From positions 1 through 24,158 of the IMG/VR virus record IMGVR_UViG_3300012038_000161: a DNA stretch of 24,158 nt. One strand, 5' to 3'. A program made the translations under genes and the position numbers. Each line of letters starts with the position of its first letter. Within the stretch, counting starts at the first letter, position 1. Under the pieces are notes generated by a model. That model was given only the letters and a program-made list of their open reading frames with translations. It did not search any database and was not told the DNA's origin. This DNA is from a virus (taxonomy: Duplodnaviria > Caudoviricetes). Shown here piece after piece: positions 9,485 to 24,158 of this stretch.

Positions 9485-10045
9485 CTATCGAAGTAACGCC
9501 CGCTCTAAAGCAGACAAATTCCACATTGCTAAAACCGCATAGATATACCGACCGAGATGCCGCAATAGAATTGGATCAGTCGGTGGTTCGGAAGTCCACG
9601 TCGCGTCCCATAAGATGAAGTAGTCGTCCAAGCGGCCGGCCGGTTTGTATTGCGGCGGGATGGACGGCACGAGCGCTGAATACTGGCTCCAAGAATTGCA
9701 CAGCGGCGAGAGCGTCTGGGGTGGTAGATATATCACGCCACGGCTCTCTGCTCCGCTCACATAGCTGCGCTTCAAAAATGAGCAGTCACCGTTTGCGTCC
9801 GAGCGCAAAAAACACTGCTCCCAACTGGCACGCGCAATCGCCAGCTTTGGACGACCTTGGCTATCAACCCCGGCAAACTTCATCACTTCCACTAGATCGA
9901 GAATCTTTTTCCCTTGAGACAGGTGCCGATAACCCGCCTTGAGGATTTTATCATCCCGGGTCTGCCGCTCTTTGACAGCTTTGCAGTAGGTGTGCCACGC
10001 CTGCTTCGCCTTGGTCCGATCCATTTCAATAACTGGTGTTTCCAT
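9485..10045 (-). CDS. Hypothetical phage protein (186 aa)
   Basis: AGGAG RBS, globular composition. Confidence 0.8.
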   Translation of the reverse strand: METPVIEMDRTKAKQAWHTYCKAVKERQTRDDKILKAGYRHLSQGKKILDLVEVMKFAGVDSQGRPKLAIARASWEQCFLRSDANGDCSFLKRSYVSGAESRGVIYLPPQTLSPLCNSWSQYSALVPSIPPQYKPAGRLDDYFILWDATWTSEPPTDPILLRHLGRYIYAVLAMWNLSALERALLR

Positions 10046-10065
10046 ATTGCGCTCCTATCCCTTCT

Positions 10066-10170
10066 TCACTTCACCCTCTCGATCGACACGTAGATGACTC
10101 GCTGCAACGGCGACAGATCAACCAGCCGGCGCCGGCGCAGCTTCGAGGCTATCCAGCGAATGAGTTTCAT
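10066..10170 (-). CDS. Small basic peptide (34 aa)
   Basis: ATGA overlap with the upstream gene; MKLIRWIASKLRRRRL... Confidence 0.4.
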   Translation of the reverse strand: MKLIRWIASKLRRRRLVDLSPLQRVIYVSIERVK

Positions 10171-10394
10171 CGCTTTGTCCGCCTTGCCCGCTTCTCGGCC
10201 TCCACAGTCGCCATGATTGTCCATTGCATCAGCCGCGGGATCGCCGCCGTGTAACGTCGCCGCGTACCCTTCCAGCGAAATGTGATCAAGTCCGGCGCCT
10301 CGATCTCGACGATGATTGGCCTGCCGCGCGACATCTTGTCGACATCGAGCCTGGCGTCGATCTCACGGGCAACTCTTTTTGTCAGCAGGGTCAC
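10167..10394 (-). CDS. Small basic hypothetical protein (75 aa)
   Basis: GTGA overlap, coupled. Confidence 0.65.
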   Translation of the reverse strand: MTLLTKRVAREIDARLDVDKMSRGRPIIVEIEAPDLITFRWKGTRRRYTAAIPRLMQWTIMATVEAEKRARRTKR

Positions 10395-10663
10395 GTTTTG
10401 ATATCCCCGGTGCAGTCGGCGATGAGTCTCTTGAAATCCTCGCCACCCTCGACAACCACAGTCTTCCCGAGCCGCCGCTCCAGGTTATTCTGGGCGCGCA
10501 TAACATCGCCGCTCTCGTCCCATCCCGACGCGGTCATACCGCGCGCCAGATCCAGCACCAGCGCCGCCGCCTCCGGCGAGAGCTGATCGCAGATCTTGTC
10601 GATGAGGTTGGAGTCGGAACAGGCGTGAGGCGTGAGGCGTGAGGCGTGAGTTTCAGATTTCAT
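10391..10663 (-). CDS. Hypothetical protein (about 90 aa)
   Basis: ATGA overlap with the upstream TM peptide; contains a 7-bp tandem repeat. Confidence 0.55.
   Translation of the reverse strand: MKSETHASRLTPHACSDSNLIDKICDQLSPEAAALVLDLARGMTASGWDESGDVMRAQNNLERRLGKTVVVEGGEDFKRLIADCTGDIKT
10621..10650. repeat. 7-bp tandem repeat (AGGCGTG)x4
   Basis: Read directly from the sequence. Confidence 0.9.
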
Positions 10664-10782
10664 CGCGTCACCCACCAGGCCAGCCAGATTACTGCCGCCC
10701 AGATTGCCATGCTGACCACCATGACCACGCCTATGCCGCGCGGATCTTGTTCGTTGTAACGGCGCTCGATCGGATCTTTCAT
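10660..10782 (-). CDS. Single-TM peptide (40 aa), below the ORF-track cutoff
   Basis: MKDPIERRYNEQDPRGIGVVMVVSMAIWAAVIWLAWWVTR. Confidence 0.6.
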   Translation of the reverse strand: MKDPIERRYNEQDPRGIGVVMVVSMAIWAAVIWLAWWVTR

Positions 10783-10789
10783 TTTTCAC

Positions 10790-11149
10790 TCATTCCTCTT
10801 TCGCCGCTAATTTTCTCGTCACCACACCGCCGAAGTCCTCGACCAACTCTTGCGCAATGTGCAACGGCAAGTCGGGATAAGTCTTCGCCCCCACCCGCAT
10901 GATGTCGCGCACGCGCTCGATCGGGTCCTTGCGCTCGCCGGAAATCCACATATCCAGAAGTTTCTTGCTGATACGCAGCTCGAAGCACAGCCGCTTGCGC
11001 CCGATCGGCTTGCTGATATGCGCCAGGAATGAGGGCCGCACCGGCTCTGGCGTACTATCTATGTTCCCTGCGATATTCCCTGTAGTGCTCATCAAATCGT
11101 CTTCAGCGTACTTACGCGCCGCCGCCGCGGCGGTTAGTTTTTGCGACAT
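10790..11149 (-). CDS. CII-like phage regulatory protein
   Basis: HTH-like GRKRLCFELRISKKLLDMW, DPIERV motif, position directly after cro. Confidence 0.6.
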   Translation of the reverse strand: MSQKLTAAAAARKYAEDDLMSTTGNIAGNIDSTPEPVRPSFLAHISKPIGRKRLCFELRISKKLLDMWISGERKDPIERVRDIMRVGAKTYPDLPLHIAQELVEDFGGVVTRKLAAKEE

Positions 11150-11179
11150 GGCGGCCTCAAATCAATTCTCTCCCGGCAC

Positions 11180-11209
11180 TTGCATTTCCGTTATCCTTTG
11201 CCCTAAAGT
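11180..11209 (+). promoter_or_regulatory. Putative rightward (PRE-like) promoter
   Basis: TTGCAT-18 nt-TAAAGT, pointing antisense through cro towards the repressor. Confidence 0.35.
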
Positions 11210-11218
11210 CGTCTGCGT

Positions 11219-11270
11219 AAAAAAAGAGCCGCTTCGCGCCCTGCTTGCCCGGCTGACGCTAAGCGGCTCT
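11219..11270 (-). terminator. Intrinsic terminator after cro (tR1-like position)
   Basis: AGAGCCGCTT...AAGCGGCTCT perfect 10-bp stem followed by a T run. Confidence 0.7.
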
Positions 11271-11480
11271 GATTTCGTCCCATGGCTTGCCGATGATCTG
11301 CTCGATCCGGCGTTGGATACGAGCGCTCCTGCTTTGGCCCAACATGACCTTGGTCACAGTGGACGGCGCGACATTTTCAAGCCTTGCGACTTCCGACGGC
11401 GAAGAGCCCGCTTTGTGCAGCGCCCGGGTGACCGGACCCAGCTCAGGCTCTTTGCGGTCGGTTTTCTTTTGCGCGTTCAT
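11259..11480 (-). CDS. Cro/Ner-like HTH regulator
   Basis: SPSEVARLENVAPSTVTKVMLG...SARIQRRI; divergent from the repressor. Confidence 0.85.
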   Translation of the reverse strand: MNAQKKTDRKEPELGPVTRALHKAGSSPSEVARLENVAPSTVTKVMLGQSRSARIQRRIEQIIGKPWDEIRAA

Positions 11481-11490
11481 TTAGGGCAAA

Positions 11491-11519
11491 GAAATACAGA
11501 ATTTAGAGATTTATGTCAA
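11491..11519 (-). promoter_or_regulatory. Putative lytic promoter for cro
   Basis: Consensus TTGACA, 17-nt spacer, weak -10 TATTTC; very short leader with no RBS. Confidence 0.5.
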
Positions 11520-11998
11520 CAAAAAAACAGCGAAAATCTGTAGTAATCCCTACATTCGCGAAAACTATAACGATTTTGCGCAAGAAAGTTGGCTTAAAAC
11601 AAAAAGATTTGGCTAGAAAGGTCGGATACGAACCGAATTATTTCAGTCAGGTGATGCGAGGAAAGATACCGGCCACTGAGCGGCTAATAAATTCCGTAGC
11701 CCATGAGCTTAATGTATCGCCTGAAAATCTTCGTCTCGGGATGACTAACGAAACTGGGGCTAAATATTTAACACCCAAAGAGGTTTTGAAATCGAAAGCT
11801 CACGAGGCCGCCCGCAACTTCATCGAGAGCGCGGAGATTGGTGGGCTCAGACTATTGCTCGAGTATATTGCTGTCTTGCAAAAATCATCGATTCAGACCG
11901 AGTCGCCGCCCAGGAGGGGTGACGAGGACCCTTTTCAAACCGTCGGGCCAGATAACGATAGTAAAGAGTTTCGCGAACTGGCGCGGCGCGAGCCGTGA
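11513..11998 (+). CDS. CI-like XRE repressor (no evident S24 peptidase domain)
   Basis: LRKKVGLKQKDLARKVGYEPNYFSQVMRGK HTH; start codon uncertain. Confidence 0.85.
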   Translation: MSTKKQRKSVVIPTFAKTITILRKKVGLKQKDLARKVGYEPNYFSQVMRGKIPATERLINSVAHELNVSPENLRLGMTNETGAKYLTPKEVLKSKAHEAARNFIESAEIGGLRLLLEYIAVLQKSSIQTESPPRRGDEDPFQTVGPDNDSKEFRELARREP

Positions 11999-12002
11999 CT
12001 TT

Positions 12003-12617
12003 ATGACGCTCACCGAACAGCTAACAGAGTCCATCGCCAAGGGCAGCACCCTTACGATTGTTTATCACGGTGGCAGCCAGCCTGGCGCCAAGCGTGTTAT
12101 TCAGCCCATCATGGTTTTAGGAAAGAAACTCCGGGCGCGCGATGTCAGCACCAACCAAACAAAGCTGTTTTTGCTCGACAAGGTAGAGATCGTCTCTGTT
12201 GGTTATGATGCGCCAGATTATGCAAGGATCACCAAAGTGGACAACCGAACAAACGATCTCGGCGAGGTTTTTAACATGTACCGTCCAGACATTGAGCGCC
12301 TTGGTTGGCTCGCGACCGCGAGCGCGGATGCCATTCGGCTGTTCGATCCATCTGCCGCGAAACAACAAAAGTATGGTGTCGTCGGTATCCGGCGCAACTT
12401 GGAACCGGTTCTTCGTATTACGCTAAATGGCGTGACGACCACGGAAGAACAATCCACGGATCATCCTTGGTTTGTCTACGGTCCCGATGTCGCGCCTGGT
12501 ATTATCGGACGTGCATTAGAACCAGGTCAGTCCTACAAATATCTGACAAAAGCGATCCGGATCTTCTTGAGTCAAGCAACTCGTCATGCCCCGAAACACA
12601 GCCCCACTCGCGGATGA
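12003..12617 (+). CDS. WYL-domain protein with unknown C-terminal domain
   Basis: LTIVYHGGSQPGAKRVIQP...LRARD......KLFLLDKVE matches the WYL fold pattern. Confidence 0.7.
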   Translation: MTLTEQLTESIAKGSTLTIVYHGGSQPGAKRVIQPIMVLGKKLRARDVSTNQTKLFLLDKVEIVSVGYDAPDYARITKVDNRTNDLGEVFNMYRPDIERLGWLATASADAIRLFDPSAAKQQKYGVVGIRRNLEPVLRITLNGVTTTEEQSTDHPWFVYGPDVAPGIIGRALEPGQSYKYLTKAIRIFLSQATRHAPKHSPTRG

Positions 12618-12698
12618 GTTGAAAACGACATGGTCTTTGGACTAAAGATTGTGCTGAATAGGGTTCAGACTTCGTCTTGAGCATAACTGGAGGCACCC

Positions 12699-13019
12699 AT
12701 GCGGACCCTTGCCGATATCGTCGGGATCCTGCTGATCGTCCTCGGCACGCTGGCGATATTCGCCGGCTGCGGCCTGTCGGCTGTTAGCCCAGGCGGCAGC
12801 GTCCTTCTATGGGCTGGAGTGGCGATGGTCGCCGTTGGGCTGGTCTTTACCAACGCCGCCGGTAAAAAGACCTGCCCCGCGTGCGCCGAGACGGTAAAAT
12901 ACAAGGCTTTCAAGTGCAAACACTGCGGCTTTGACTTCGCCAGCGAGGGCAAAAAGGCGCCGGGCCCCACCGATCCTAATGCACTGCCGCACGAGTCCGG
13001 CCGGCTGCTGGGCGGCTGA
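12699..13019 (+). CDS. Two-TM membrane protein with zinc ribbon
   Basis: Two hydrophobic helices then KKTCPACAE...KCKHCG; GGAGG RBS. Confidence 0.85.
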   Translation: MRTLADIVGILLIVLGTLAIFAGCGLSAVSPGGSVLLWAGVAMVAVGLVFTNAAGKKTCPACAETVKYKAFKCKHCGFDFASEGKKAPGPTDPNALPHESGRLLGG

Positions 13020-13290
13020 GCGCGCACGCCCGCCGCTCCTCGAGGTCCTTTTTCGCCGCCGCCTCTCGATCCTGCCACTGCATGTTTGCCGGCGTATCTG
13101 CGCCGCCCAGGCACAGCGGCACGATATGGTCGACAACCCAGCCCGGACACGCGCCGCCTTGATTCCCAGTCGCCGGGCAAGGGTTGGCCTGGCGAAACAG
13201 TCTGACCTGCCTGGCGTCACGCGCGGATAGCGCCACCGGTGAGCAAGCCAGGATCAGCCCAAGCGTGACGGCGAGGATTAAGGACAGCAT
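12976..13290 (-). CDS. Secreted HNH-like protein
   Basis: N-terminal signal peptide; FRQANPCPATG...CPGWVVDHIVPLCLGGAD.PANMQWQ. Confidence 0.85.
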   Translation of the reverse strand: MLSLILAVTLGLILACSPVALSARDARQVRLFRQANPCPATGNQGGACPGWVVDHIVPLCLGGADTPANMQWQDREAAAKKDLEERRACALSRPAAGRTRAAVH

Positions 13291-13294
13291 CTGA

Positions 13295-13774
13295 TCAGAC
13301 AAACATCGGCGGTGCGAACTGCCGCCATGATTCGACGTAGTCTTGCACCGTGCCGGCGCCGAGCGGAGTGTTGTAGACTTTCTTCCAAAACGCCGCCTGT
13401 CCGGGCAGAGTGTCGGGAATAATCTCAGGCGATCGATAGTAGTGAATCCGGCAGATAGCCGTGGCATAGTACAAGTTTCCGGTCAGCTCATCGCTACCTA
13501 TACCGTTGCCCCATGAGATACGCCAGCGGTTGACCTTCTTAGCGAGCTCCGGTCGGTTGCTCAAAAAGTGAGTCCACAGATCCTCATGCGTCGCCGGCTC
13601 GCATTGATAAATGCCCTTCGCCGGGCCGTTTCCGAGCTGCACAAGCCAGGTGCCGCACTTGCTCTCCTGGCAAGCCGTGCCCAGTACCATCGCCTCGGCT
13701 ACGACTCCGCCCATGCCGAGAGATTGCAGCACCGGTCGGATGACTTCTTTGAGGAGATGATTAGCGTCTATCAT
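13295..13774 (-). CDS. Endolysin, lysozyme-like/transglycosylase fold
   Basis: GTACQES (catalytic Glu), GPAKGIYQCEPAT, WKKVYNT; ATGA overlap at 13774. Confidence 0.8.
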   Translation of the reverse strand: MIDANHLLKEVIRPVLQSLGMGGVVAEAMVLGTACQESKCGTWLVQLGNGPAKGIYQCEPATHEDLWTHFLSNRPELAKKVNRWRISWGNGIGSDELTGNLYYATAICRIHYYRSPEIIPDTLPGQAAFWKKVYNTPLGAGTVQDYVESWRQFAPPMFV

Positions 13775-14070
13775 TGGATTAACCTGCACCCATCGCCGAA
13801 GTGCGGCTGAATAATTGCTTCCTTTGGCATGACGAGCCACATCGTTGCACCGGATGGCGGGGGTCCGACCACTTGAAAGCATCCGTACACTTTTTGGCCG
13901 AGTTCGTTGTACGCCTTGACTTGTTCCGGCGTCAGCGCCTGCCCCTGGCCTAGCGCGTTGCCAATCAGCATGCCGGTGCAGCCATAGATGGAGAGAAACA
14001 AGGCGATAGCCGCAGCGATGATCAAATTTTCTTTCCATGATTGCGCGCGCAGGCGACGCTCGTCTTTCAT
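13771..14070 (-). CDS. Lipoprotein, possible outer spanin
   Basis: Hydrophobic leader ending in lipobox-like IYGC; GGAGG RBS; within the lysis cluster. Confidence 0.65.
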   Translation of the reverse strand: MKDERRLRAQSWKENLIIAAAIALFLSIYGCTGMLIGNALGQGQALTPEQVKAYNELGQKVYGCFQVVGPPPSGATMWLVMPKEAIIQPHFGDGCRLIQ

Positions 14071-14243
14071 TCTCGCCTCCGTATATCCCGCGCCACCCGA
14101 CACAGCATGTAGACAAACAGAATCACCAGCACAACAAGCAGAATGATCAAGGCGATAATGCCCACCGCGTCGTAGAACAGCGACAACATGCCCACCATCG
14201 TGCGCCAGGATATGTCGAGCCAGAAGTAAATTTCATCGGTCAT
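14067..14243 (-). CDS. Small membrane protein (58 aa), below the ORF-track cutoff
   Basis: TM segment AVGIIALIILLVVLVILFVYML then basic tail; ATGA overlap. Confidence 0.65.
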   Translation of the reverse strand: MTDEIYFWLDISWRTMVGMLSLFYDAVGIIALIILLVVLVILFVYMLCRVARDIRRRE

Positions 14244-14263
14244 CGTAGGCTCGGGATTTGACC

Positions 14264-14473
14264 CTATTTTTTTTCTGCGGTCGCGGTCTGAATTTGTTTC
14301 ATAGTCGAGTGCGTTGAATAGTCCTTAGCCGCAATGCCGACCAACGCGCCGCCGAGAGCGGTTAAAAATTGCGGCACCCACTTCCAATTTTCTGGCAATG
14401 GCACCAGGACAAGAGCGGCGCCGAACGCTGCCAGTACACCGCCGACCGTCGTTTTCCAATTTTCTATTTGCAT
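14264..14473 (-). CDS. Putative holin (two TM)
   Basis: NWKTT motif, two TM helices, AKD motif, GGAGG RBS. Confidence 0.7.
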   Translation of the reverse strand: MQIENWKTTVGGVLAAFGAALVLVPLPENWKWVPQFLTALGGALVGIAAKDYSTHSTMKQIQTATAEKK

Positions 14474-14477
14474 GTTT

Positions 14478-14585
14478 CTACCTCCGTCTCGACTCAAGTT
14501 CGAATCTCATGTCTATTCCAGAGATCTTGTCCGAGTGTTTTCGCTGTAGGGCTTCAATTCTCTCAACGATAGTGTCAGCGCTCAT
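14478..14585 (-). CDS. Small peptide (35 aa)
   Basis: TGATG overlap with the upstream gene; fills the gap. Confidence 0.4.
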   Translation of the reverse strand: MSADTIVERIEALQRKHSDKISGIDMRFELESRRR

Positions 14586-14851
14586 CAACGATCCTCGATT
14601 AGTTTCATCGGCTCGCATCCTGATCGATACTGATTACCGTCGAGCTTGTAGCAAATTGAGCGCAAAATCGATGTTTGTTGCCAAGCGTTGTACTCTAGTC
14701 GTGAGAGCGTCTGCATGATCGGTGATGGCATCCAACCGAGCAGTGCAGCGACGAGCAAGACGGCCAATGCAGTAGGGAAGCCGACTTGAACGAAAATTCT
14801 CACCCACCAAGGCGTCGGGATGTGCAACTCCGTAGATTCTCCCATCATCAC
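14585..14851 (-). CDS. Single-TM protein (holin-, antiholin- or inner-spanin-like)
   Basis: VGFPTALAVLLVAALLGW TM; short C-terminal region with two Cys. Confidence 0.6.
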   Translation of the reverse strand: MMMGESTELHIPTPWWVRIFVQVGFPTALAVLLVAALLGWMPSPIMQTLSRLEYNAWQQTSILRSICYKLDGNQYRSGCEPMKLIEDR

Positions 14852-14897
14852 CTTCTTCCTATGTCTTCAATTTGGATGACCTTAATCTCAATCCACT

Positions 14898-15206
14898 TCA
14901 TCCCACCGGATTCTCTGCCTTAACCCGAAAGCTGCCTTGCTGCGCCGACTCCACGGTGCCGGTCGATTCATAACGCCAATGCCATGTGCCAGGTTCGATC
15001 AAGGATAGATCGACGTGATACAGACCAACGCCTTCGCGCACCAGTGCGGCGTCGACGCCGTACACGAGCAGCGTTGGGGCGGGATCGCTCGGCACCTGAT
15101 AGATAAATTTTACCTGATTAGGATCGGTTAAAACCTTCCCGAGTCGGAACGATCCTAAAAAGCGCGGCTTTTGGCCGACGACGTAATCGCAATCGAATTG
15201 ACTCAT
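14898..15206 (-). CDS. Small Ig-like phage protein
   Basis: LTDP...G.GLYHVD.....GTWHWRYE beta-sandwich pattern. Confidence 0.75.
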   Translation of the reverse strand: MSQFDCDYVVGQKPRFLGSFRLGKVLTDPNQVKFIYQVPSDPAPTLLVYGVDAALVREGVGLYHVDLSLIEPGTWHWRYESTGTVESAQQGSFRVKAENPVG

Positions 15207-16237
15207 GCTGCCTGCCCGATCTGACCGATGTCATGGTGTGGAACAGCGCGCACGCGCAGCTCTTGATATGGAACAGCGCGTGCGCGCAGCTCTTGATGGA
15301 AATAAACCCGTACACGGCAAGACGATTCTTCTATGAGAACACCGAGTGTGGCCGGGTTTATCGCAAGCGCCGTGTCGGTCTCGATCGCCTGCGCGATGCT
15401 CTTATTCTTCAGCTTGCCGAGTCCGAAAGCGCTGTCGGCCTCCAGCGCCTGCAAGATGGCGAATTGATAGATGATCGAAATAGGCTGCGCGGTGTCGGTC
15501 TCACTCGCTTGCGCAATCGCCTTGTTCTTGAGCCCCACCAACGCCTGGGCAATATCGGACTCAGCGGCTGCGAGGATCAACCGGCGAAGAGGCGAGATCG
15601 TAAGAGCTGCGGCGGTGTCGGTCTCACTCGCCTGGGCGACCGCTTTGACCTTGAGTTTCGATAGCGCCTGGGCGCTGTCGGTTTCCTCTGCCTGGCCGAT
15701 GATCCCCGGACGTGTGACGGCGTCGGCGGTGTCGATCTCGCTGGCCTGGCCGAGGAGCTTGGATTTGGCCGAGTCGACCGCCTGCGCGGCGTCGGTTTCG
15801 CTGGCCTGCGCGATCGCCGCCGCTTTGGCCGACGCGATCGCCTGGGCGATATCGGTTTCGCTGGCCTGGGTGATGCCTTTGGCTTTGCGCGCGGTGAGCG
15901 CCTGCGCGCTGTCGTTTTCACTGGCCTGGGTGATGGTTTTTGCTTTGGCCGCGGTGAGTGCTTGGGCCGCGTCGGTCTCCTCGGCGGTGGCTATTAGCCG
16001 GCGTTGCGGATTGACGGTGACAGCTTGGGCGCTGTCGGTTTCCGTCGCTTGCGCGATGGCTTTGGCCTTGCGCGAAGTGATCGCCTGCGCTGCATCGGTT
16101 TCGGTGACTTGGGTGACGGCTTTGGTCTTGAGACGGGTGATCGCCTGCGCGGTGTCGGTTTCGGTGACTTGCCCGACGGATTGGGTGATTGCACCGCCGG
16201 CGTGGGGATGACCCCAAAAGATTTTTGCAATCGCCAT
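15203..16237 (-). CDS. Fibre-like protein with about 19-aa tandem repeats
   Basis: About 15 repeats of I.QA.ETD.AQA....K.K. Confidence 0.85.
   Translation of the reverse strand: MAIAKIFWGHPHAGGAITQSVGQVTETDTAQAITRLKTKAVTQVTETDAAQAITSRKAKAIAQATETDSAQAVTVNPQRRLIATAEETDAAQALTAAKAKTITQASENDSAQALTARKAKGITQASETDIAQAIASAKAAAIAQASETDAAQAVDSAKSKLLGQASEIDTADAVTRPGIIGQAEETDSAQALSKLKVKAVAQASETDTAAALTISPLRRLILAAAESDIAQALVGLKNKAIAQASETDTAQPISIIYQFAILQALEADSAFGLGKLKNKSIAQAIETDTALAINPATLGVLIEESSCRVRVYFHQELRARAVPYQELRVRAVPHHDIGQIGQAA
15239..15298. repeat. 30-bp tandem duplication
   Basis: TGGAACAGCGCG..CGCGCAGCTCTTGAT twice; encodes QELR.RAVP. Confidence 0.85.
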
Positions 16238-16245
16238 TTAGCAGC

Positions 16246-16560
16246 TCATGAAGTCGTCGGGATCGAGAGAAAATAATCCGCCCACTCTTTGGGGTTAGTC
16301 TGATCGACACCTTGGATCGTGATCACGTCGCCGTTCATTTCCGAAGATGACAGCTCAATCAGCACAGCGCGGCCGCCCGATGGACTGACACTCGGCAGCG
16401 TCGCCAGATTATTAAACCCGCCACCGTCGATGTCGACTTTGAAGTCACCGCTGGCGATGGTCGGATTGGTTTTGAGCGTGCCGACGCCCTGCAGGTCCTC
16501 CAGGGCGATGCGGATTTTGAAGTCCTCGTTTTTCTTTGGCGGATTATAAGGTGCAGCCAT
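16246..16560 (-). CDS. Small beta-rich phage protein
   Basis: NPTIASGDFKVDIDGG.F.NLATLPSV.P...ELSSSEMNGD motif. Confidence 0.8.
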   Translation of the reverse strand: MAAPYNPPKKNEDFKIRIALEDLQGVGTLKTNPTIASGDFKVDIDGGGFNNLATLPSVSPSGGRAVLIELSSSEMNGDVITIQGVDQTNPKEWADYFLSIPTTS

Positions 16561-16562
16561 CG

Positions 16563-18734
16563 TTAAAACCCCGCGCCGATGTTTGGCCCCGGCCGCGAAT
16601 CTTGCCGCTGCGCCGCGCCGGGATCGATATAGTTGTAGGTAGATGAGCCTGTGCCAATAGCTAACGAGCCGCCGACCGGATAGCCCTTAGCTCTCAGCGC
16701 GGCGTTTTGAATGCGGAAGTCACCGCCTGCCGCATTGACGAATTGCGGGTCGAGGGTCTGCTCATCGAAGCTGGGGATTTGTGTGGGATAATACGCGCCA
16801 GATGAATTGTTGTAAAAATTATTCCCGCGAATTATCCACGGCAAAACTCCCTCTGTGGCTGTATAGTGGAGCTTGGAATCGACGGTTAACCCATATCCAG
16901 TGTTGTTCGATATGATGTTGTTTACAAGAAAACCGCCAAGCATGAGCACCGGGTAGGCATTGGGACCGCTTAACTGAACGCCTCCGCCTGCGTTCCCATT
17001 TATAGTATTCCCTACGATCGTAAAACCAGCACTACCGCTCGTGGTTGGTGTGATCTGGATACCAACTCCAGTACAGCCGGTGATTATGTTGCCCGTTATC
17101 ACTGCTTCGACGCCACTTGCCAAGTTGATTCCAATGGCACAGTCATGAATATAATTATTTGCAAAGATTCTACCCGGCGTAGGGATGGTTGTCTGGATGC
17201 ATGCCACAGCGCAAGAAATCTCAGAGTCTACAATCATTGCTCCGGTAAAAATGCTGTTGAATGGGATTGCAAACTTGTTTGTTGCATGGGCGGCTTTTAT
17301 ATTCTTAAAGAGAAGTCGGCTGACTGACCCCTGCGTGAAAATAGTTGAAGCCGTCTTAGTTCCGTTGGTATTTTGGAATTCGATACCCTCAAACCACAAC
17401 AGAGAACCGGCTAGCGAAAATCCAGTTCCGTTATTGCTAAAGGTGACCAGCGGTCTCGTTGCCGCGCCTGGGGTGGCCCTCATCGTAACCCACCCGCCAA
17501 TCATCTGATTGCCGCCAGTTCTCCAACTCACCGCACCGGCAAAGGTGTCCGTAAATCCGCTTTCCAGTTCCAGTGTCCATCCAGGTTGTAAATCCGAAAG
17601 TGTACCTGACATCGCAAACAAACTCTGGCTGGAGGTTGACGATATCGTCAACCGTTTTCCGCCAATTGCGCACGCTTTTGTTTGGCTCGTCTGTAGCGGC
17701 AGCTCCACCCTCACTACATCGTTGGCATCGTCAACGCTGGTGATCATGACGAAATTTCTAAAGTCTGCGGTCGTGTCGTTGAAAAACAGCGCCGCGCTCC
17801 CATCGCTCGCTACCCCGCTTAGATCCGATCCCGATAGGGTAACCGAAAAACCGTCAGCCGAGGATTGACACGAACCGTTGGTAACCGCCGTAGCTGGTCC
17901 CGCTCCGCTGGCATTGCTATCCGATCCGGTCGAACTGTTGGCGAGAATCGTAGGAAAAACCCTCGGCGTGCCTTCCACGAAAGCAAGATACATACTAACC
18001 GAGGTCGCACTCTCGACCGTTGGATCGCTCGCCTGGCTTGTTGCGGTAACGATCCTGAATTCCGCGAAGGCCTGCCTGGATGTGTTTGCCGTGCCGGTAT
18101 TCGCGTTGGCGACTGAAAACGCTGTAAAATTAGTCGTTGGAGTTATTGCTCCACCGTTACCCGACGAACCTATGGCGCGCAGAAACAAGTATTCTGCGCT
18201 CAGAAGATTGTCGATTGTCATCGATGCTGGGTCTGCGCTATTGGCCTCTATATCCGTAACAAACCCGGCAACTCGAAGATAATTTCCGCTACCGACGCTA
18301 AATTCCCAACAAGTCATGGCGCGAGCATCGGCAGAAGAATGATGTGCAGTTATAGTGCCGCTACTCGGCAAATCGACAGTGGCCTTCGTCATGAAAACGG
18401 CCCCTGTCGATTGAGTCACCGAATCATCGCCATCGATATTGAACTCTCTTACAAACTCCCAAATATTCCCCACCGAATCGACAAACGCGAACATTCGACC
18501 ACGATAGCCCTCGGTATTGTCACTTGAATCGTGAACGTGAACGCAGGCCCCATAATTACCGACATCAAGTTGAGCGGAAGTTGTGAGGGCGAGACTATTT
18601 TGCGCGGTGTTGGTTGCCGTTGCGGTCCCGAGCGAGCCGATGCTGGTGATCGCTGCGCGAACCGGCACAACGGTCGCAATCGGCGACACGATTAGAGTCA
18701 AGGCAAAGAGCAAAAGCCGCTGCCACAAATTCAT
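16563..18734 (-). CDS. Signal-peptide-bearing protein with right-handed parallel beta-helix (pectin lyase-like)
   Basis: Sec-type leader ending VRA; repeats NNYIHDC, GNIITGC, GNTINGN, NNIISNN; terminal DPQFVNAAGGDFR motif. Confidence 0.85.
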   Translation of the reverse strand: MNLWQRLLLFALTLIVSPIATVVPVRAAITSIGSLGTATATNTAQNSLALTTSAQLDVGNYGACVHVHDSSDNTEGYRGRMFAFVDSVGNIWEFVREFNIDGDDSVTQSTGAVFMTKATVDLPSSGTITAHHSSADARAMTCWEFSVGSGNYLRVAGFVTDIEANSADPASMTIDNLLSAEYLFLRAIGSSGNGGAITPTTNFTAFSVANANTGTANTSRQAFAEFRIVTATSQASDPTVESATSVSMYLAFVEGTPRVFPTILANSSTGSDSNASGAGPATAVTNGSCQSSADGFSVTLSGSDLSGVASDGSAALFFNDTTADFRNFVMITSVDDANDVVRVELPLQTSQTKACAIGGKRLTISSTSSQSLFAMSGTLSDLQPGWTLELESGFTDTFAGAVSWRTGGNQMIGGWVTMRATPGAATRPLVTFSNNGTGFSLAGSLLWFEGIEFQNTNGTKTASTIFTQGSVSRLLFKNIKAAHATNKFAIPFNSIFTGAMIVDSEISCAVACIQTTIPTPGRIFANNYIHDCAIGINLASGVEAVITGNIITGCTGVGIQITPTTSGSAGFTIVGNTINGNAGGGVQLSGPNAYPVLMLGGFLVNNIISNNTGYGLTVDSKLHYTATEGVLPWIIRGNNFYNNSSGAYYPTQIPSFDEQTLDPQFVNAAGGDFRIQNAALRAKGYPVGGSLAIGTGSSTYNYIDPGAAQRQDSRPGPNIGAGF

Positions 18735-20107
18735 GGTTGAAGCTCTCCGTTTATGATGACATTGGCGCCCGCTGGAGCCAGAATTCTAATCGGCGGTGCC
18801 GATCGCTCGAATGTAAACGGGACTCCATCCCTGATTGTGATCGTCGCATCGGCTTCAATCTGCGGTAAGTCATGCTCGAATACGTGAATCGCCACGGCGC
18901 CGTACTGTCCGGCTCCCTGTTGAGCGATATAAACCCTTCGCGAAGTTTCGTCGTAAGCGACTCCTCCGAGGGCGTGTGCGTTGTTAGCCTCGAAGGGCAA
19001 ATTGAACCGCCAAAGTGCGTAAGGCAGAACATCCCAGGCGTTTTTCTCACCGCGCCTTACCTTGTCCAACTCAACGGCGTCGTAGGCCCACATTTGGTAA
19101 ATGTACGGGTAGGCATGAGGCCCGGTAGAATTGCTGACTGGATCATAGCAGTAGTGTTGAATATTCGCCGGTGGAAACGGGAGCAGATGTTTCGCCGGAT
19201 CATTCGTACCAGGACCGTAGCAGTATTCGCCGGTTCCCTTCTTTCCGACGTACAGGACAGTTCGAGTGCCAACTGGCTGCACGATCCCGGTGATCGCGGT
19301 TGCCGCGCCGTAAGCATCTGTGTTGCCGGTATACTGCCCAAGTGTGGGATGGGCGAGCGGATAATACACCAGCGCAGATGTGTTCACTGTATTCCCAGCC
19401 TGAATGTCTTGTGGATTAAAAGAGAACGCTGACGGTCCTAACGAAGTCCTGCTAATGATCGACACACAACAATTGCCGGTCAGGTGAGTCCCTCCCAAAA
19501 GAGACTGCAACCCGCTTTGCACCTTTGCCATGTAGCCGCTGAAAAACCCGGCCTTCAACGTTCCGTTGGCCATGCGTACCGGACCGATTACTTGCCCCGG
19601 CATTCCAAACGATAGCGGGCGGGCGAAGTGCGAGAGCACCTGGCTACCGTCAGCATCGTAGGACGAATAAGCCGAGATAATCAGCCGCCCTTGATCGACT
19701 ACCATGCCGCCAAGCTGAATATCGGTGGCTGGTGGATCGACTAAGAGCCGCTTTCCTTCCAGGGCGTCGGAAAATGCTTGAAGCACCGGCGCAATCGGCA
19801 AGGCCGCGAATGTCGAACCTGGCGCCCCCAGTGTGAGCGGAATCTGAACTTCCGACACATGGTAAGGATGCCAAGCATGGCCGCTGTAAAATAGAGACCG
19901 ATTCGCCGGATTGAACGCGAGCGCATAGCCGCCGTAAGTAAAGCAGTTGCTTACCGTACTCGTTGGAACAGCTCCGCATGGAACGGTCCCGGCCGGCAGG
20001 CGGAATGCACCAACGTGGCGCAGGTGGCTAGATTGGAGCAACGGCTCGACTGCGTGGGCCGTTGAAATCAGCAGAAGGCATGCAAGGACCAACTTCATCA
20101 AGATCAT
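18731..20107 (-). CDS. Secreted protein, probable beta-propeller
   Basis: AAGGAG RBS, leader ending AHA; blade-like motifs LAFNPANRSLFYSG and GGVAYDETSRRVYIAQ; paired Cys. Confidence 0.8.
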   Translation of the reverse strand: MILMKLVLACLLLISTAHAVEPLLQSSHLRHVGAFRLPAGTVPCGAVPTSTVSNCFTYGGYALAFNPANRSLFYSGHAWHPYHVSEVQIPLTLGAPGSTFAALPIAPVLQAFSDALEGKRLLVDPPATDIQLGGMVVDQGRLIISAYSSYDADGSQVLSHFARPLSFGMPGQVIGPVRMANGTLKAGFFSGYMAKVQSGLQSLLGGTHLTGNCCVSIISRTSLGPSAFSFNPQDIQAGNTVNTSALVYYPLAHPTLGQYTGNTDAYGAATAITGIVQPVGTRTVLYVGKKGTGEYCYGPGTNDPAKHLLPFPPANIQHYCYDPVSNSTGPHAYPYIYQMWAYDAVELDKVRRGEKNAWDVLPYALWRFNLPFEANNAHALGGVAYDETSRRVYIAQQGAGQYGAVAIHVFEHDLPQIEADATITIRDGVPFTFERSAPPIRILAPAGANVIINGELQP

Positions 20108-20117
20108 CGCTGTCTCC

Positions 20118-20597
20118 TTATGACGCCCGGAAAAATCCCGCCGCGGCGATCTGCGCTGTGACGTCACTTCCGTCCGGCGTGATCGCAAAATCGTGGTGCG
20201 TCATCGGCACGATGTTGGCATCCGTCCCGCCCGTTGTGTCGCTGTCGTAGGCCGTGACGAATTTACTGATCGCCCCGGTGCCGTCATTGGCGAGCCCGGT
20301 CCAGGTCTGGTCGGGGATGTCGATGTCCACTCGGTCGTTTGTATCGTCCGGTGCGAACGCGCTGATGTCGGAGTCGGTCAACACCTTGCGCGCATACCCG
20401 GTGTTCGTTGCTTCGTTGGTAGTGCCAGCGACGAGCGCGCTTACCGTATCGAAATCGCGCAACGCCGTGTCGGCCTCAAGGCCTGTGGTCGCGAGCAGAA
20501 TGATAATCAACGCCGAGTTGGCCGGATCGTTTAAGTCGACGCGGTTGTAGAGCTCGGCGACGCGCCCCTTTGCTATGTTAAAGACTTCGTTTCCCAT
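20118..20597 (-). CDS. Putative phage structural protein (159 aa)
   Basis: AAGGAG RBS; NEATNTGYARK.L...D.TW...PDGSDVT motif typical of small virion-associated proteins. Confidence 0.8.
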   Translation of the reverse strand: MGNEVFNIAKGRVAELYNRVDLNDPANSALIIILLATTGLEADTALRDFDTVSALVAGTTNEATNTGYARKVLTDSDISAFAPDDTNDRVDIDIPDQTWTGLANDGTGAISKFVTAYDSDTTGGTDANIVPMTHHDFAITPDGSDVTAQIAAAGFFRAS

Positions 20598-20628
20598 AAT
20601 TCACTCCTTGGAAAAATTTTCCTTCGTG

Positions 20629-21093
20629 TTAAGACGCCTTGCGATACCGCGCGGCAAGTCGCGCGTGAAACTTTGTCTTGCCGGTGTCCAGGATCTTGGC
20701 AACTTCCTCGTTGCTGATCTCGCTGAAGTCCTTGCCCGTCACCACGGTAAAGAAGTTGTCGACGCGGTAGCCTGAAGGGTTGGTAGGATCGGGCGAAGGC
20801 TTGCCCCCGCCGACCTTGGCGACATGCGCCTTGGCCTCGGCTTCGCCGCCGAGTTTTTCGCCGGTAAAGCAGGAATAGTGCCCGGGGCCGCGAACCACGC
20901 GATATTCCATGGTTTGGTTCTCTCCCTTAACCACGAACTTTCCCGCGCTCGCCTCCAGCCAGCCTTCCGCAATGCCTGTCTCGATCAGCGACGGAGACCA
21001 GTGCTCCACCGCCTTGGCGCGCATCACGCGCACGCCGTTGACGTGGGTCGGCTTGCCCTCTTTATCCTTCGCGTAGAGTCTTTTCAAAAACAT
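20629..21093 (-). CDS. Hypothetical protein (154 aa)
   Basis: AAGGAGG RBS. Confidence 0.8.
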   Translation of the reverse strand: MFLKRLYAKDKEGKPTHVNGVRVMRAKAVEHWSPSLIETGIAEGWLEASAGKFVVKGENQTMEYRVVRGPGHYSCFTGEKLGGEAEAKAHVAKVGGGKPSPDPTNPSGYRVDNFFTVVTGKDFSEISNEEVAKILDTGKTKFHARLAARYRKAS

Positions 21094-21102
21094 AAAACCT
21101 CC

Positions 21103-21801
21103 TTATTGAACCTGAATTGTTAAAGCTGTGGGAGCACCCGGCGTGCTCATTTCAAAGCGCACCGCGGCTTTGTTGATCTTGTAGCCGATAGTTTTCTGAT
21201 GCCCGAAGCGCAGCTTATTGACGCCGTCGACTAGGTAGGCAAGCGGAATATCGTATTCGACCGTGGCGACCTTCTGCTGGTTGGCCGATGTGCCGACCGA
21301 GCCAAACAGCACAATGGGCCCGTTACCGTTGATGTATAGGTCGCCCTCGTCTGGATAGTCCGGGTCGTAGACTTCCAGAATGAGGATCGCCCGGCTTACA
21401 CCGGCCGGCTTGGCGACCGTGATTTCCAAAGTCTTATACTCCGGCAACGTCGTCCCTTCCATATTCAGCGGCAACGTGGCCACCGCGGTGGTGGGGATCG
21501 TGCCGCACCCTTCATTTCTGGCGGACTCGCCGCCGGCGTTGAAGGCCGTTACCGCAAAGCAAATCTGCGAACCCTCGTTCGCGGTGATCGAGGGAGTAAC
21601 GAATTTCGTCTGGTTGGCGCCCACTTGTCCGATCACAGCGAAAGTGCCGTCAGCGGCCTTGCGATATAGCTTGAACCCGTCCTCGTTGTTGGAGTTATCT
21701 GTCCAGGTGAGGGTAAACACGGCCGGCCTGGGTTGAGCGGAGACAGATCCGGCATAGATGATCGACGCCAGAGCGGCGATGACGAGGCAACATAATTTCA
21801 T
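21103..21801 (-). CDS. Secreted fibronectin type III protein (internal in-frame start)
   Basis: GGAGG RBS, signal peptide, LTWTDNSNNEDGFKLYR...FAVTAFNAGGES. Confidence 0.8.
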   Translation of the reverse strand: MKLCCLVIAALASIIYAGSVSAQPRPAVFTLTWTDNSNNEDGFKLYRKAADGTFAVIGQVGANQTKFVTPSITANEGSQICFAVTAFNAGGESARNEGCGTIPTTAVATLPLNMEGTTLPEYKTLEITVAKPAGVSRAILILEVYDPDYPDEGDLYINGNGPIVLFGSVGTSANQQKVATVEYDIPLAYLVDGVNKLRFGHQKTIGYKINKAAVRFEMSTPGAPTALTIQVQ

Positions 21802-22338
21802 AGACCCACCCTCCAAAAGATTTTCGGCAAACGATTTCAGACTGCGGCAGGCGTACCAGTAGGTGTCGGGCTTTAACCCGGGCGGCAGATCCAGCCGTTC
21901 ACCCTTGACGCCGGTGCCGTGGGTCGCCATCAGATTCAAGGTCCGCACATGCTTGCTGTGACCCCTACTGTCCGACTGCTTCGCCGCCTCGACCAGAGCG
22001 CCTAATTGCAAGCGCGCGTCGGCTCGATCTTCGATGGTGCTGGTTTGGTGCCTGGTCTCGTCGACGTGATCGAGCGGCATCGCTAGGTCGCGCTTGTGGG
22101 TCCGCCTACCGTACCATCGGCTTTCCCAGCAGATATTCGATAGCTCGTTGAGCATGTAATAGCGCACCGATTTCGCCGGAAAGTAATTGCAATCGCTGTA
22201 ACGCACGAGCGCTTCGCAACCGGATTGAAAAATATCTTGCTCGGCGGCGCGTGGATCGCCGAGTTGAAATTTGTTTTGCCAGGCGATCTTACGAGCCATC
22301 TTTTTCAACGTAGTCAAGTGATCCTCGACCGCTATCAT
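21103..22338 (-). CDS. Sigma-70-like domain fused in frame to a signal/TM segment, FN3 domain and jelly-roll-like domain
   Basis: Region-2-like LKKMARK...DIFQSGCEAL...VRYYMLNEL; no stop before MKLCCLVIAALASIIYAGSVSA; GAGG RBS at ATG 22338. Confidence 0.55.
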   Translation of the reverse strand: MIAVEDHLTTLKKMARKIAWQNKFQLGDPRAAEQDIFQSGCEALVRYSDCNYFPAKSVRYYMLNELSNICWESRWYGRRTHKRDLAMPLDHVDETRHQTSTIEDRADARLQLGALVEAAKQSDSRGHSKHVRTLNLMATHGTGVKGERLDLPPGLKPDTYWYACRSLKSFAENLLEGGSMKLCCLVIAALASIIYAGSVSAQPRPAVFTLTWTDNSNNEDGFKLYRKAADGTFAVIGQVGANQTKFVTPSITANEGSQICFAVTAFNAGGESARNEGCGTIPTTAVATLPLNMEGTTLPEYKTLEITVAKPAGVSRAILILEVYDPDYPDEGDLYINGNGPIVLFGSVGTSANQQKVATVEYDIPLAYLVDGVNKLRFGHQKTIGYKINKAAVRFEMSTPGAPTALTIQVQ

Positions 22339-22373
22339 CTTGGTCTCAACCTCGGGAATGCGGAGCCCGCCAC

Positions 22374-22408
22374 AAAAAAAGGCCGGGGAGTTCTGCACTC
22401 CGCCGGCC
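22374..22408 (-). terminator. Intrinsic terminator / attenuator
   Basis: GGCCGG(C)GGAGT-GCAGA-ACTCCCCGGCC followed by T7. Confidence 0.8.
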
Positions 22409-22467
22409 TCTCAGGGCTCGTCAGGCAATGTTGTAAGCCTGGGCCTCTCAGGGCTCGTCAGGCAATG
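22405..22467 (-). repeat. Two perfect 26-nt direct repeats CATTGCCTGACGAGCCCTGAGAGGCC
   Basis: Copies at 22442-22467 and 22405-22430; partial CTGACGA copy near 22476-22482. Confidence 0.95.
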
Positions 22468-22486
22468 GTTTTAATTCGTCAGCGTC

Positions 22487-22684
22487 TCATGGCCACCGGT
22501 TCAAATGGCCGCAACGCGGACATTTGATTTCACCGCGCAACGTGCCGCGGAAGAGTAATCGTTGACACTTGCCGCAGCGGGTGTCGCGCAAGGCCACACC
22601 AGCCGCTTCGGACGCGCCGATATTATTTTGTCTCCCGTATAGGGGGGCGGGAGACTGTGTCTTGAGCTGCGTTTCATTGGCCAT
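22487..22684 (-). CDS. com: Com-family zinc-finger regulator (phage Mu Com-like)
   Basis: RCGKCQRLLF......EIKCPRCGHLN signature; the true start may be further downstream. Confidence 0.85.
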   Translation of the reverse strand: MANETQLKTQSPAPLYGRQNNIGASEAAGVALRDTRCGKCQRLLFRGTLRGEIKCPRCGHLNRWP

Positions 22685-22715
22685 TTGTACGCCGCCGAGG
22701 AGAAAAAGTCCAACA

Positions 22716-23054
22716 TTAAACGACTGCCGAGCCGGGGAAGCCGCGCCCGACGGTCTCGCTCATTTGGTACACGTTGACGGTCACCGACGCCTGGGGAGAT
22801 CCGAAATCGGTGGTTTGCTGCGCCGCGCTGTAGGCGACCGTCTGCGCGCTTGCCGTGAGCGTCCGCACGACCGTTGAGCCGTTCAGGATGTCGATTTCAT
22901 AAGCCTCGGTCGTTTCCCCCAGGGGCACGTCGACCAAGTCGCGCCATTCCTGATGCTCTCTGGTTCGCCGAATCCAAGTGATCGTGAGATTGTCCGAACC
23001 GTCCCGGCTGCCGGCGATGTGAACCGGCGCCAATGGTTTCAAGCTCGCGGTCAT
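22716..23054 (-). CDS. C-terminal module of a GTA-like tail-tip/host-specificity protein
   Basis: LKPLAPVH...ITWIRRTR...W....DVPLGE..EAYEIDI...VYQMS..VGRG. Confidence 0.8.
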   Translation of the reverse strand: MTASLKPLAPVHIAGSRDGSDNLTITWIRRTREHQEWRDLVDVPLGETTEAYEIDILNGSTVVRTLTASAQTVAYSAAQQTTDFGSPQASVTVNVYQMSETVGRGFPGSAVV

Positions 23055-24157
23055 AGCGTGAAGTGAACCTCGTTCGCATCGGTGAACAGAGACCCCAACG
23101 AAGTCGCCCGGAAAATCTGCGGTGCGCCGATCTCCGATCCGGACGCGCTTATACGGTGCAGGGCCAGGGGATCGAGCACCACAAACGGCTCGCCGATCAT
23201 GTGGTCGGCCACCGCAAACTCGCTCCCCCTGCGGCCGCGCAATAGGTTTGACAGCCTGTAGATGCCAGAGCCGAGAGCGACCGCCGTCGTCCACTGGATA
23301 ATCTCGACGTCGCCGTTGATCTTAATCAGCGCCGCAGCGTTGGCGCCGTTGAGCACGTTGGCCTGGCTCTCGCTCGACAGCATGAAAATGTCCGGTCTTA
23401 CCAGATGTACGTCGAGGGTGTTGACCGTGTCCCAGGTGTTTACATTGGCCGGGGGGAGCAGGGCAGTCCTGGCGTAGCCAATACAGCTCTGCACGTCCAT
23501 GGTCGCGATGTCGGTATAGGTTTGACCATCATCTATTGACTTGGCGATGATGGCGCCTGTCCAAGGTGGGTTGTAGCCGCTGACTGCCAGATAGTAGCCG
23601 ATCCCGTTGTCCTCGGGGCGCAACAGCACCGAGTCAAAAACAATCAACCGCGTCGATCCGGCAAGCCCGACAACCTTGGGAATAAGACCACCGGATGGCG
23701 TGCCGCCTAGCGCGACGTAACCGGAATAAAGGCCGGGGTCCTCGGACACTGCTTTCACCACTATGATTCCCGGTTGACCGTATTCCACGCCAGCCGCCCG
23801 AAAGCGCAGCGTGCGCGGGACCGCCACTTGAACTACCTCGGCCACACCCATCGCGCGCGCGCCTACGAGGGACACGCTAACCAGGGTCTGATCATCGATA
23901 ACCAGAGCGTCGGCGCCGACGGCCGCCGTCCTGACAATCGACGGCACGTTGAACCGCGCGGATACCGTCGGTTGTCCGACCGCGAGCGTCCCGACCAGAG
24001 AGGCAGCAACGAGGGTGTTGGCGTCGACTACATAGTGGTCGCCCACCCCGGTCGAGGCATTGACCAGCGAGGGGGCCTGTAACGCGCGTCCGAGCGTTGG
24101 CGTGCCGATCGCCAGCGGGCCGGTTAATGATGGGATAGTGAGAGCTACGGCGAGTAC
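23051..24157 (-). CDS. GTA-like tail-tip/host-specificity protein, 5' truncated by the window
   Basis: VLNGANAAAL...EIIQW..A......YRLSNLLRGRRGSE; frame is open to the window edge. Confidence 0.85.
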   Translation of the reverse strand, partial: VLAVALTIPSLTGPLAIGTPTLGRALQAPSLVNASTGVGDHYVVDANTLVAASLVGTLAVGQPTVSARFNVPSIVRTAAVGADALVIDDQTLVSVSLVGARAMGVAEVVQVAVPRTLRFRAAGVEYGQPGIIVVKAVSEDPGLYSGYVALGGTPSGGLIPKVVGLAGSTRLIVFDSVLLRPEDNGIGYYLAVSGYNPPWTGAIIAKSIDDGQTYTDIATMDVQSCIGYARTALLPPANVNTWDTVNTLDVHLVRPDIFMLSSESQANVLNGANAAALIKINGDVEIIQWTTAVALGSGIYRLSNLLRGRRGSEFAVADHMIGEPFVVLDPLALHRISASGSEIGAPQIFRATSLGSLFTDANEVHFTL

Positions 24158-24158
24158 C

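Follow-up and report, generated by a model that had tools for sequence, protein, structure and literature searches.

The analysed stretch of DNA (24,158 nt, hereafter the window) corresponds to G000:C18:12430-36587, part of a 48,328-bp contig with a 55-nt terminal repeat. The contig encodes an integrase, terminase-, portal- and capsid-like frames read from their translations, and tail genes assigned with PHROG. This gene set, together with the terminal repeat, indicates that C18 is a circular, probably complete temperate phage. Nearly all of its genes lie on one strand, and comparison with the rest of G000 gave no convincing match (the best being 39 nt at 87%) and no tRNA. Inside a replication-initiator-like gene (5528-6364), we observed 10-nt tandem repeats at about 5960-6040, which are probably the origin. 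At the other end of the window, the minus strand reads from the tail tip into a com-like gene, a 148-nt leader and about 9.4 kb of packed genes down to 12976. The com region is present as identical copies in four IMG/VR contigs. The com-like gene starts 31 nt after the stop codon of the last tail gene, on the same strand. The last tail protein itself (phrog_4271) is split over two overlapping minus-strand frames, 23051-24158 and 22716-23294, which cover profile positions 930-1189 and 1190-1306, pointing to a frameshift or an assembly error.

The com-like gene (22487-22684, minus strand) encodes 65 residues, with a four-cysteine zinc ribbon at residues 34-64 and an N-terminal extension modelled with low confidence. 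The protein matched PF10122 over residues 32-62 with 35.9 bits (cut-off 22.9), as well as PHROG 6417 and 13819. In the family search, zinc-ribbon families alone were matched, with no CAT or PRD domain. Residues C37, C40, C55 and C58, in the CxxC...CxxC arrangement, were invariant in 25 sequences, and the ribbon was modelled as four strands with pLDDT of 90 or more. Only seven residues follow the last cysteine. A fold search with the model returned no match at E 0.001. We also noted a perfect GC-rich hairpin of 8-9 bp at 22630-22655, within the 5' part of com, and a weak terminator-like hairpin just before the gene.

Two 26-nt repeats, 100% identical and 37 nt apart from start to start, follow com on the minus strand, in agreement with the original prediction. 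Repeat 1 (22442-22467) begins 19 nt past the com stop, and the sites lie 19-82 nt after it. Perfect 26-mers repeated at a distance of 26-60 nt were found at just two places in the 5.5-Mb assembly. Each copy reads GAG-C-CC-UGA-GAG-G-CC, a bipartite GAG/CC pattern with three occurrences in the phage, namely both repeats and one on the non-coding strand. The predicted Com hairpin of repeat 1 spans 22454-22443 and can be extended by 5 bp to 22437, its extended form reaching -10.6 kcal/mol. In repeat 2 (22405-22430), the predicted hairpin spans 22417-22406, and its 3' arm doubles as the base of a terminator. A third copy of the 7-mer CUGACGA was present at 22482-22476 (minus strand), between the com stop and repeat 1.

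Mu Com has been reported to recognise CC(N)2-3GAG within the loop of a hairpin that has a C-G closing pair, and in selected RNAs two GAG(N)2CC cores were arranged around a stem of 3-4 bp (PMC6483171). The window repeats fold as GCC-CUGAGA-GGC, that is, a 3-bp stem with the C-G closing pair and a loop one base off the CUGCGA of the Mu target. The Mu 19-mer and the 5' half of each repeat also have 11 bases in common once a single inserted base is allowed for, and the full stem is absent. The Mu site had been described in the original prediction as lying downstream of its own gene; in the Mu record it is part of the com coding sequence, directly ahead of the start of mom, which overlaps com.

The predicted intrinsic terminator (22374-22408, minus strand) consists of an 11-bp stem with one bulge, a 5-nt loop and U7 (22380-22374). 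Its hairpin (22408-22381, -21.0 kcal/mol) was present in both the MFE and centroid structures, with a probability of 1.0 for the first six pairs. It was missed by a simple hairpin scanner, for which the bulged C is the probable reason. The stem opens with the last GGCC of repeat 2 (22408-22405), as had been noticed from the letters alone, and in the extended form of hairpin 2 the overlap grows to seven bases. Since the 3' arm of hairpin 2 is the terminator base, the two folds are mutually exclusive. In hand-drawn states, repeat 1 plus terminator (OFF) gave -32.6 kcal/mol, compared to -22.9 kcal/mol for both hairpins without the terminator base (ON). Constrained folding up to the U tract gave -40.2 kcal/mol with the terminator and -32.7 kcal/mol without it. 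In these predicted folds the terminator wins by 7.5-9.7 kcal/mol without protein, and the default would therefore be termination. No Rfam family matched at the gathering score in 21800-23000, nor in 16 gate loci; compared with known hammerhead and riboswitch motifs, the region has no GAAA core after the hairpin, and such a reading was rejected. We found no further gate on the C18 coding strand and no other strict gate in G000, so that by these rules there is no multi-gate regulon.

The 35-nt spacer between the terminator and the next gene (22339-22373, minus strand) contains a Shine-Dalgarno-like GAGG (22353-22350) and is free of strong inhibitory structure and of sigma-70-like promoters. It had been suggested that GCGGAGU of the terminator arm pairs alternatively with GCUCCGC beside this ribosome site, possibly controlling translation. 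The complement indeed exists (22403-22397 with 22366-22360, seven possible pairs), but its pair probability was 0.0 and forcing it costs 9.6 kcal/mol. Moreover, GCUCCGC lies 3' of the U tract and would not yet be made at the termination decision. In the predicted fold, the start codon of the next gene was unpaired and GAGG was weakly paired. On these grounds the translational arm of the original prediction was rejected.

The gene directly behind the leader (21802-22338, minus strand) encodes 179 residues without a stop codon. Residues 1-78 resemble sigma-70 region 2, with VIA Z up to 9.3 and rmsd of 2.3-3.1 over 71-75 residues; the model is weak, and this Z lies below the caution level for helical bundles. 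Sigma chains filled most of the top 14 VIA rows and also most of the Foldseek rows, the latter not significant, and in the Atlas the protein groups with sigma-70 clusters at 0.95-0.96. The part corresponding to region 4 was modelled weakly (mean pLDDT 59) and matched no family, and the gene as a whole had no Pfam, PHROG or NCBIfam match. The product is probably a sigma-like factor that the window phage carries behind the gate. Two homologs were found by sequence, plus one in a further phage (L319), whose copy belongs to an early-type region and is preceded by neither com nor a gate. In L319, the sole relative with context, the link between Com and sigma is thus not conserved. A Com-sigma cascade is possible in the window phage, without comparative support; the gene proposed to be gated does look sigma-like. 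The sigma-like frame, lacking a stop, runs into a 232-residue secreted protein, at which point the three homologs of the sigma part stop. This arrangement could yield a membrane-tethered form of 411 residues, or the stop may have been lost recently.

The 232-residue protein (21103-21801, minus strand) has a signal-peptide-like start and its own GGAGG/ATG, and its likeness to fibronectin-III and carbohydrate-binding domains is a lead only, with Atlas matches under 0.9. A homolog (E 3e-6) lies behind the com gate of another phage (L514), where it is followed by an endolysin-like frame, read from likeness to L451, in a block without a sigma-like gene. BLASTP to the L454 gene was not significant, and neither the 232-residue protein nor a 159-residue one had a relative of known structure. 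The rest of the likely gated block (12976-21093, minus strand) is made of packed genes for a 723-residue beta-helix protein (PF13229), for holin-, lipoprotein- and muramidase-like proteins, for a protein of phrog_3108 (unknown function) and for an HNH-like protein with a weak match. Down to 14851, neighbouring genes are separated by -4 to 46 nt; the gaps beyond measure 111 and 160 nt. Lysis and fibre genes had been predicted here; the holin-, lipoprotein- and muramidase-like labels were inferred from protein anatomy, and the lysis and fibre labels in general rest mostly on such anatomy rather than on family matches.

We surveyed com loci from the protein side by homolog searches and locus scans, which gave 280 com-like frames, 60 of them non-redundant. 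Besides the window, 54 served as comparison loci; L427 (21 bits, with a loose gate) and four other frames below 25 bits were excluded. At 8 of the 60 loci, the 3' arm of a hairpin formed the beginning of a predicted terminator, namely at the window site, at six of the comparison loci and at one weak dropped frame. By this rule, the overlap was present at 6 of the 54 comparison loci and absent from the other 48. Among 904 terminator-like hairpins in G000, 19 had a loose hairpin overlap and one, the window site, had the strict form, whereas behind other com genes the loose overlap was present in 6 of 10 and the strict form in 5 of 10. The strict definition had been drawn up with the window site already known and had been widened to include it. 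At the 54 loci, sequence-defined boxes near the com stop paired at 2-3 of 3 positions in 19 of 23 cases, compared to 25 of 102 in distant intervals. Counted by locus, a pairing box was present at 13 of 54 com loci and in 24 of 997 intervals.

At several other loci, the arrangement recurs directly after com. The ribbon closest to that of the window Com belongs to L217, in which twin CCC-CUGGGA-GGG hairpins, the second within a terminator, precede a scaffold-like gene. At L416, from the host family of G000, two differing hairpins and an overlapping terminator stand between com and lysis-like genes. In L514, a twin hairpin and overlapping terminator directly follow com and precede the homolog of the 21103-21801 gene. 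The host-family search gave a match in 2 of 89 other genomes, one with a gate and the other a frame with a lost cysteine; this frame type was seen only once (L417), at a locus that shows no site. The exact repeat is private to the window phage, as a 14-mer scan of viral contigs returned 119 loci of which the two relevant ones were copies of that phage, and a twin-hairpin pattern scan of viral contigs returned 18 loci, four of them the window phage, with no new com gate.

Other com loci are organised differently. At L324 and L382, com overlaps a methylase-like gene, as in Mu. In gut phages (L141-L216 and L220-L296), com is followed by GAG...GAGCC words and a hairpin that, by eye, apparently pairs with a ribosome site, which belongs to the next long gene (tape-measure-like). 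Judged by eye, these loci are likely a translational branch of the Com family. In the host's phylum, com-like frames at L127, L129, L134 and L135 overlap the start of a pilin-like gene, which we take from its sequence to be of the conjugative type.

A second scan of viral contigs used an RNA pattern drawn from four gates, without protein information and with two stem positions left free. It gave at least 120 loci, with 100 non-redundant ones among the matches listed. Both free stem positions paired in 68 of these 100, with U-A, C-G, A-U and G-C all seen. Among the same listed matches, a com-like frame (18 bits or more on the profile used here) ended within 600 nt upstream in 29 of the 68 paired gates, in none of the 32 non-pairing matches and in none of 117 control loci. 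The Fisher value for this linkage among the matches listed, 2e-6, is overstated, since some of the counted loci had also served to derive the patterns, and related phages do not count as independent cases. A second hairpin was likewise found in 26 of 68 paired gates and in 0 of 32 non-pairing matches among those listed. Next genes were looked up for 22 of the 29 com-linked gates, and 21 had a frame; the downstream frames of L449 and L480 were not part of the family assignment. Their first genes, again among the matches listed, comprised five head protease or head genes, three portals, one terminase, four endolysins, one major tail gene, two of unknown families and five without a match. Named virion or lysis genes accounted for 14 of these 21 among the matches listed, and none was a DNA-modification gene.

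The arrangement of com, hairpins and terminator is a family trait across phages. The window site, a short-stemmed variant, does not match the scan pattern. Aligned in the family register, it has pairing at two of the three stem positions, and the last C is missing from repeat 2. A sequence-only model built from 17 other sites found just two matches in the window, repeat 1 (E 0.4) and repeat 2 (E 5.3), both weak. Family twins are 28-58 nt apart (37 nt in the window) and share a common stretch of at most 10 nt, so that the perfect 26-nt repeat of the window suggests a recent duplication or conversion. Nevertheless, the window site is a real and well-formed example of Com-linked terminator gates, a family that has apparently not been described before.

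We propose, with a probability of about 0.65, that the 9.4 kb or so of sigma-like, secreted and probable lysis genes are under antitermination by Com, which would bind the hairpin in the nascent RNA. The twin repeats would be RNA sites for the adjacent Com-like zinc ribbon. Once bound by Com, hairpin 2 would not release its 3' arm to the terminator stem, and RNA polymerase would read through into the genes behind. Repeat 1 would be a second, earlier-made site that may load Com or steepen the response. Because com lies 31 nt behind the last tail gene on the same strand, Com would be expected to accumulate late, and the gate would open only after the virion genes had been expressed. The original idea that Com binds the repeats to control termination gains from the likeness to the Mu site and from the family pattern, with binding and read-through standing as predictions.

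Some observations argue against antitermination. We must note that the window site is off the family norm in both stem pairing and model score, and that Com would have to overcome a large energy difference. A terminator gate is absent from most com loci of the protein-side survey, and many of those in gut phages have, by eye, a hairpin over the ribosome site. The zinc finger of Mu Com alone suffices for RNA binding, while the C-terminal tail that, as suggested for Mu (PMC6483171), may be needed for RNA remodelling is missing from the window Com.

The source of the leader RNA bears on the first alternative, according to which a separate promoter directly ahead of repeat 1 serves the leader, or the whole site is a relic. 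Transcription of com with the tail operon would then be beside the point, the terminator would mainly insulate or leak, and a phage-specific or activator-dependent promoter would fire the leader. Among the matches listed, a sigma-70-like promoter (at least 9/12) was present within 150 nt upstream in 29 of 66 paired family gates, compared to 1 of 66 downstream of the gates and 5 of 32 non-pairing matches. In L454, L514, L451, L519, L562 and L526, a near-consensus sigma-70 promoter overlaps the com end, 12-14 nt before the first hairpin, suggesting that the gate has its own promoter in many phages. The window leader has no promoter at 9/12 or better; an 8/12 match ends 11 nt before the first GAG, with a candidate -10 that lacks the final T. 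Between the U tract and the start codon, no 8/12 promoter fits wholly inside with room for a ribosome site. The simplest source of the leader would be the tail-com transcript. A promoter of its own would alter the timing and not the need to pass the terminator. The weak terminator-like hairpin before com and the departure from the family norm would suit this alternative, whereas the perfect repeats, the intact four-cysteine ribbon and U7 argue against decay, as does the absence of a site at the locus with the lost cysteine. Taken together, we consider the alternative unlikely. Contigs from RNA libraries (four runs) decide nothing here, since DNA may be their source and the runs had been chosen together with the window: 14 short ones (depth 2-6) fell inside 10000-24158, on both sides of the terminator, none bridged it, no piece lay in 22603-24158, and six more fitted C18:1-20000, including head genes.

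A second alternative has com as a mere neighbour and the hairpins as targets of a different factor, either a host or other phage protein or one acting at the DNA level; we regard this as quite improbable. Direct repeats are a common form of DNA operator, and 39 of 68 paired gates among the matches listed have no com-like frame within 600 nt upstream. Nevertheless, the stem covaries as RNA, and com is tied to paired matches only (29 of 68 vs 0 of 32 among those listed). A missing com may also be distant or beyond the flank, as the last 40 loci of the RNA scan had flanks of about 300 nt and two com-less paired loci among the matches listed had a com-like frame 894 and 1291 nt away. Moreover, the loop matches a site tested with the Com finger (PMC6483171).

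The opposite direction of control would have repeat 1 pair with repeat 2 and hide the terminator arm, so that Com on repeat 1 breaks the pairing and causes termination, as negative feedback. Indeed, when nascent RNAs of 84-102 nt were folded, repeat 1 formed base pairs across repeat 2, the 3' arm of the latter included. At full length, however, the terminator still wins without protein. Such control also needs identical twins, whereas the stems at L416 and L124 differ and cannot cross-pair, family twins share 10 nt at most, and 42 of 68 paired gates among the matches listed have no twin within 70 nt. We therefore hold it to be very unlikely. Just as improbable is a Mu-like activation of the next gene's translation, with Com melting structure over the ribosome site, which is the sole tested role of the Com family (mom in Mu; PMC6483171) and could draw on the 7-nt complement and on the com loci that look translational, but is opposed by the folding results given above and by the U7 terminator between the hairpins and the start.

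The locus shares with Mu com-mom a four-cysteine ribbon above the Pfam cut-off, with 12 of 29 ribbon positions identical, a hairpin with a C-G closing pair and a CUGnGA loop, a protein gene that adjoins the predicted site, and the overlap of that site with the 5' arm of an inhibitory hairpin. Unlike in Mu, the inhibitory hairpin is a U7 terminator and not structure over a start codon, two perfect sites lie in a 148-nt intergenic leader and not within com, the protein ends without the C-terminal tail, and the genes downstream are sigma-like, secreted and probable lysis genes instead of a DNA-modifying enzyme overlapping com.

In the RAT antitermination systems of BglG and LicT, a small protein-bound hairpin overlaps the 5' arm of a terminator, the two folds are exclusive, and the proteins are built of CAT and PRD domains. 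The window gate has the same overlap between the predicted protein site and the terminator 5' arm, and the same mutually exclusive folds. It differs in having no CAT or PRD domain, the protein being a 65-residue zinc ribbon encoded in a phage late region, and no sugar-signal input was seen. In consequence, we suggest that the gate would work like RAT-type antitermination with a finger and site of the Mu Com type, being neither a com-mom translational switch nor a member of the RAT family. Lambda N and Q modify polymerase for passage through many terminators and time blocks of genes. As with these proteins, a phage protein is proposed here to time gene blocks by passing terminators; the window site, unlike theirs, is built into one terminator, and the phage has only one such gate.

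Homologs of com have been described in Pseudomonas directly before llpA, before tailocin cargo and lysis enzymes, and before levansucrase (PMC6240691, PMC4684702). These loci are like the window in having com directly before non-mom genes, including lytic enzymes, but the available text of both accounts names no RNA site or terminator and calls the role unexplored. We found no description of a Com-hairpin-terminator system in the literature searched, which left most subscription papers outside. Com is not mentioned in the available text of PMC13551039 or in the main text of PMC5737381, which reports 224 RNA motifs.

A broader reading, which we put forward as doubtful, is that Com-like ribbons are widespread, undescribed phage antiterminators. 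In the window phage the gate would head a two-step timer, in which late Com opens the terminator and releases a phage sigma factor, made also as the 411-residue form with a membrane anchor and an outside domain, which may fire further phage promoters.

Com is known from one tested case, as the translational activator of a DNA-modifying gene in Mu, and reviews describe its wider role as unexplored. Should antitermination be confirmed, many phages would use the same tiny finger and hairpin to set when their virion and lysis genes are expressed, and this form of late regulation would stand beside those based on Q, N, activators and sigma factors. Starts of late operons could then be recognised through the gate in phages without annotation, and the gate would supply a small ON switch made of protein and RNA.
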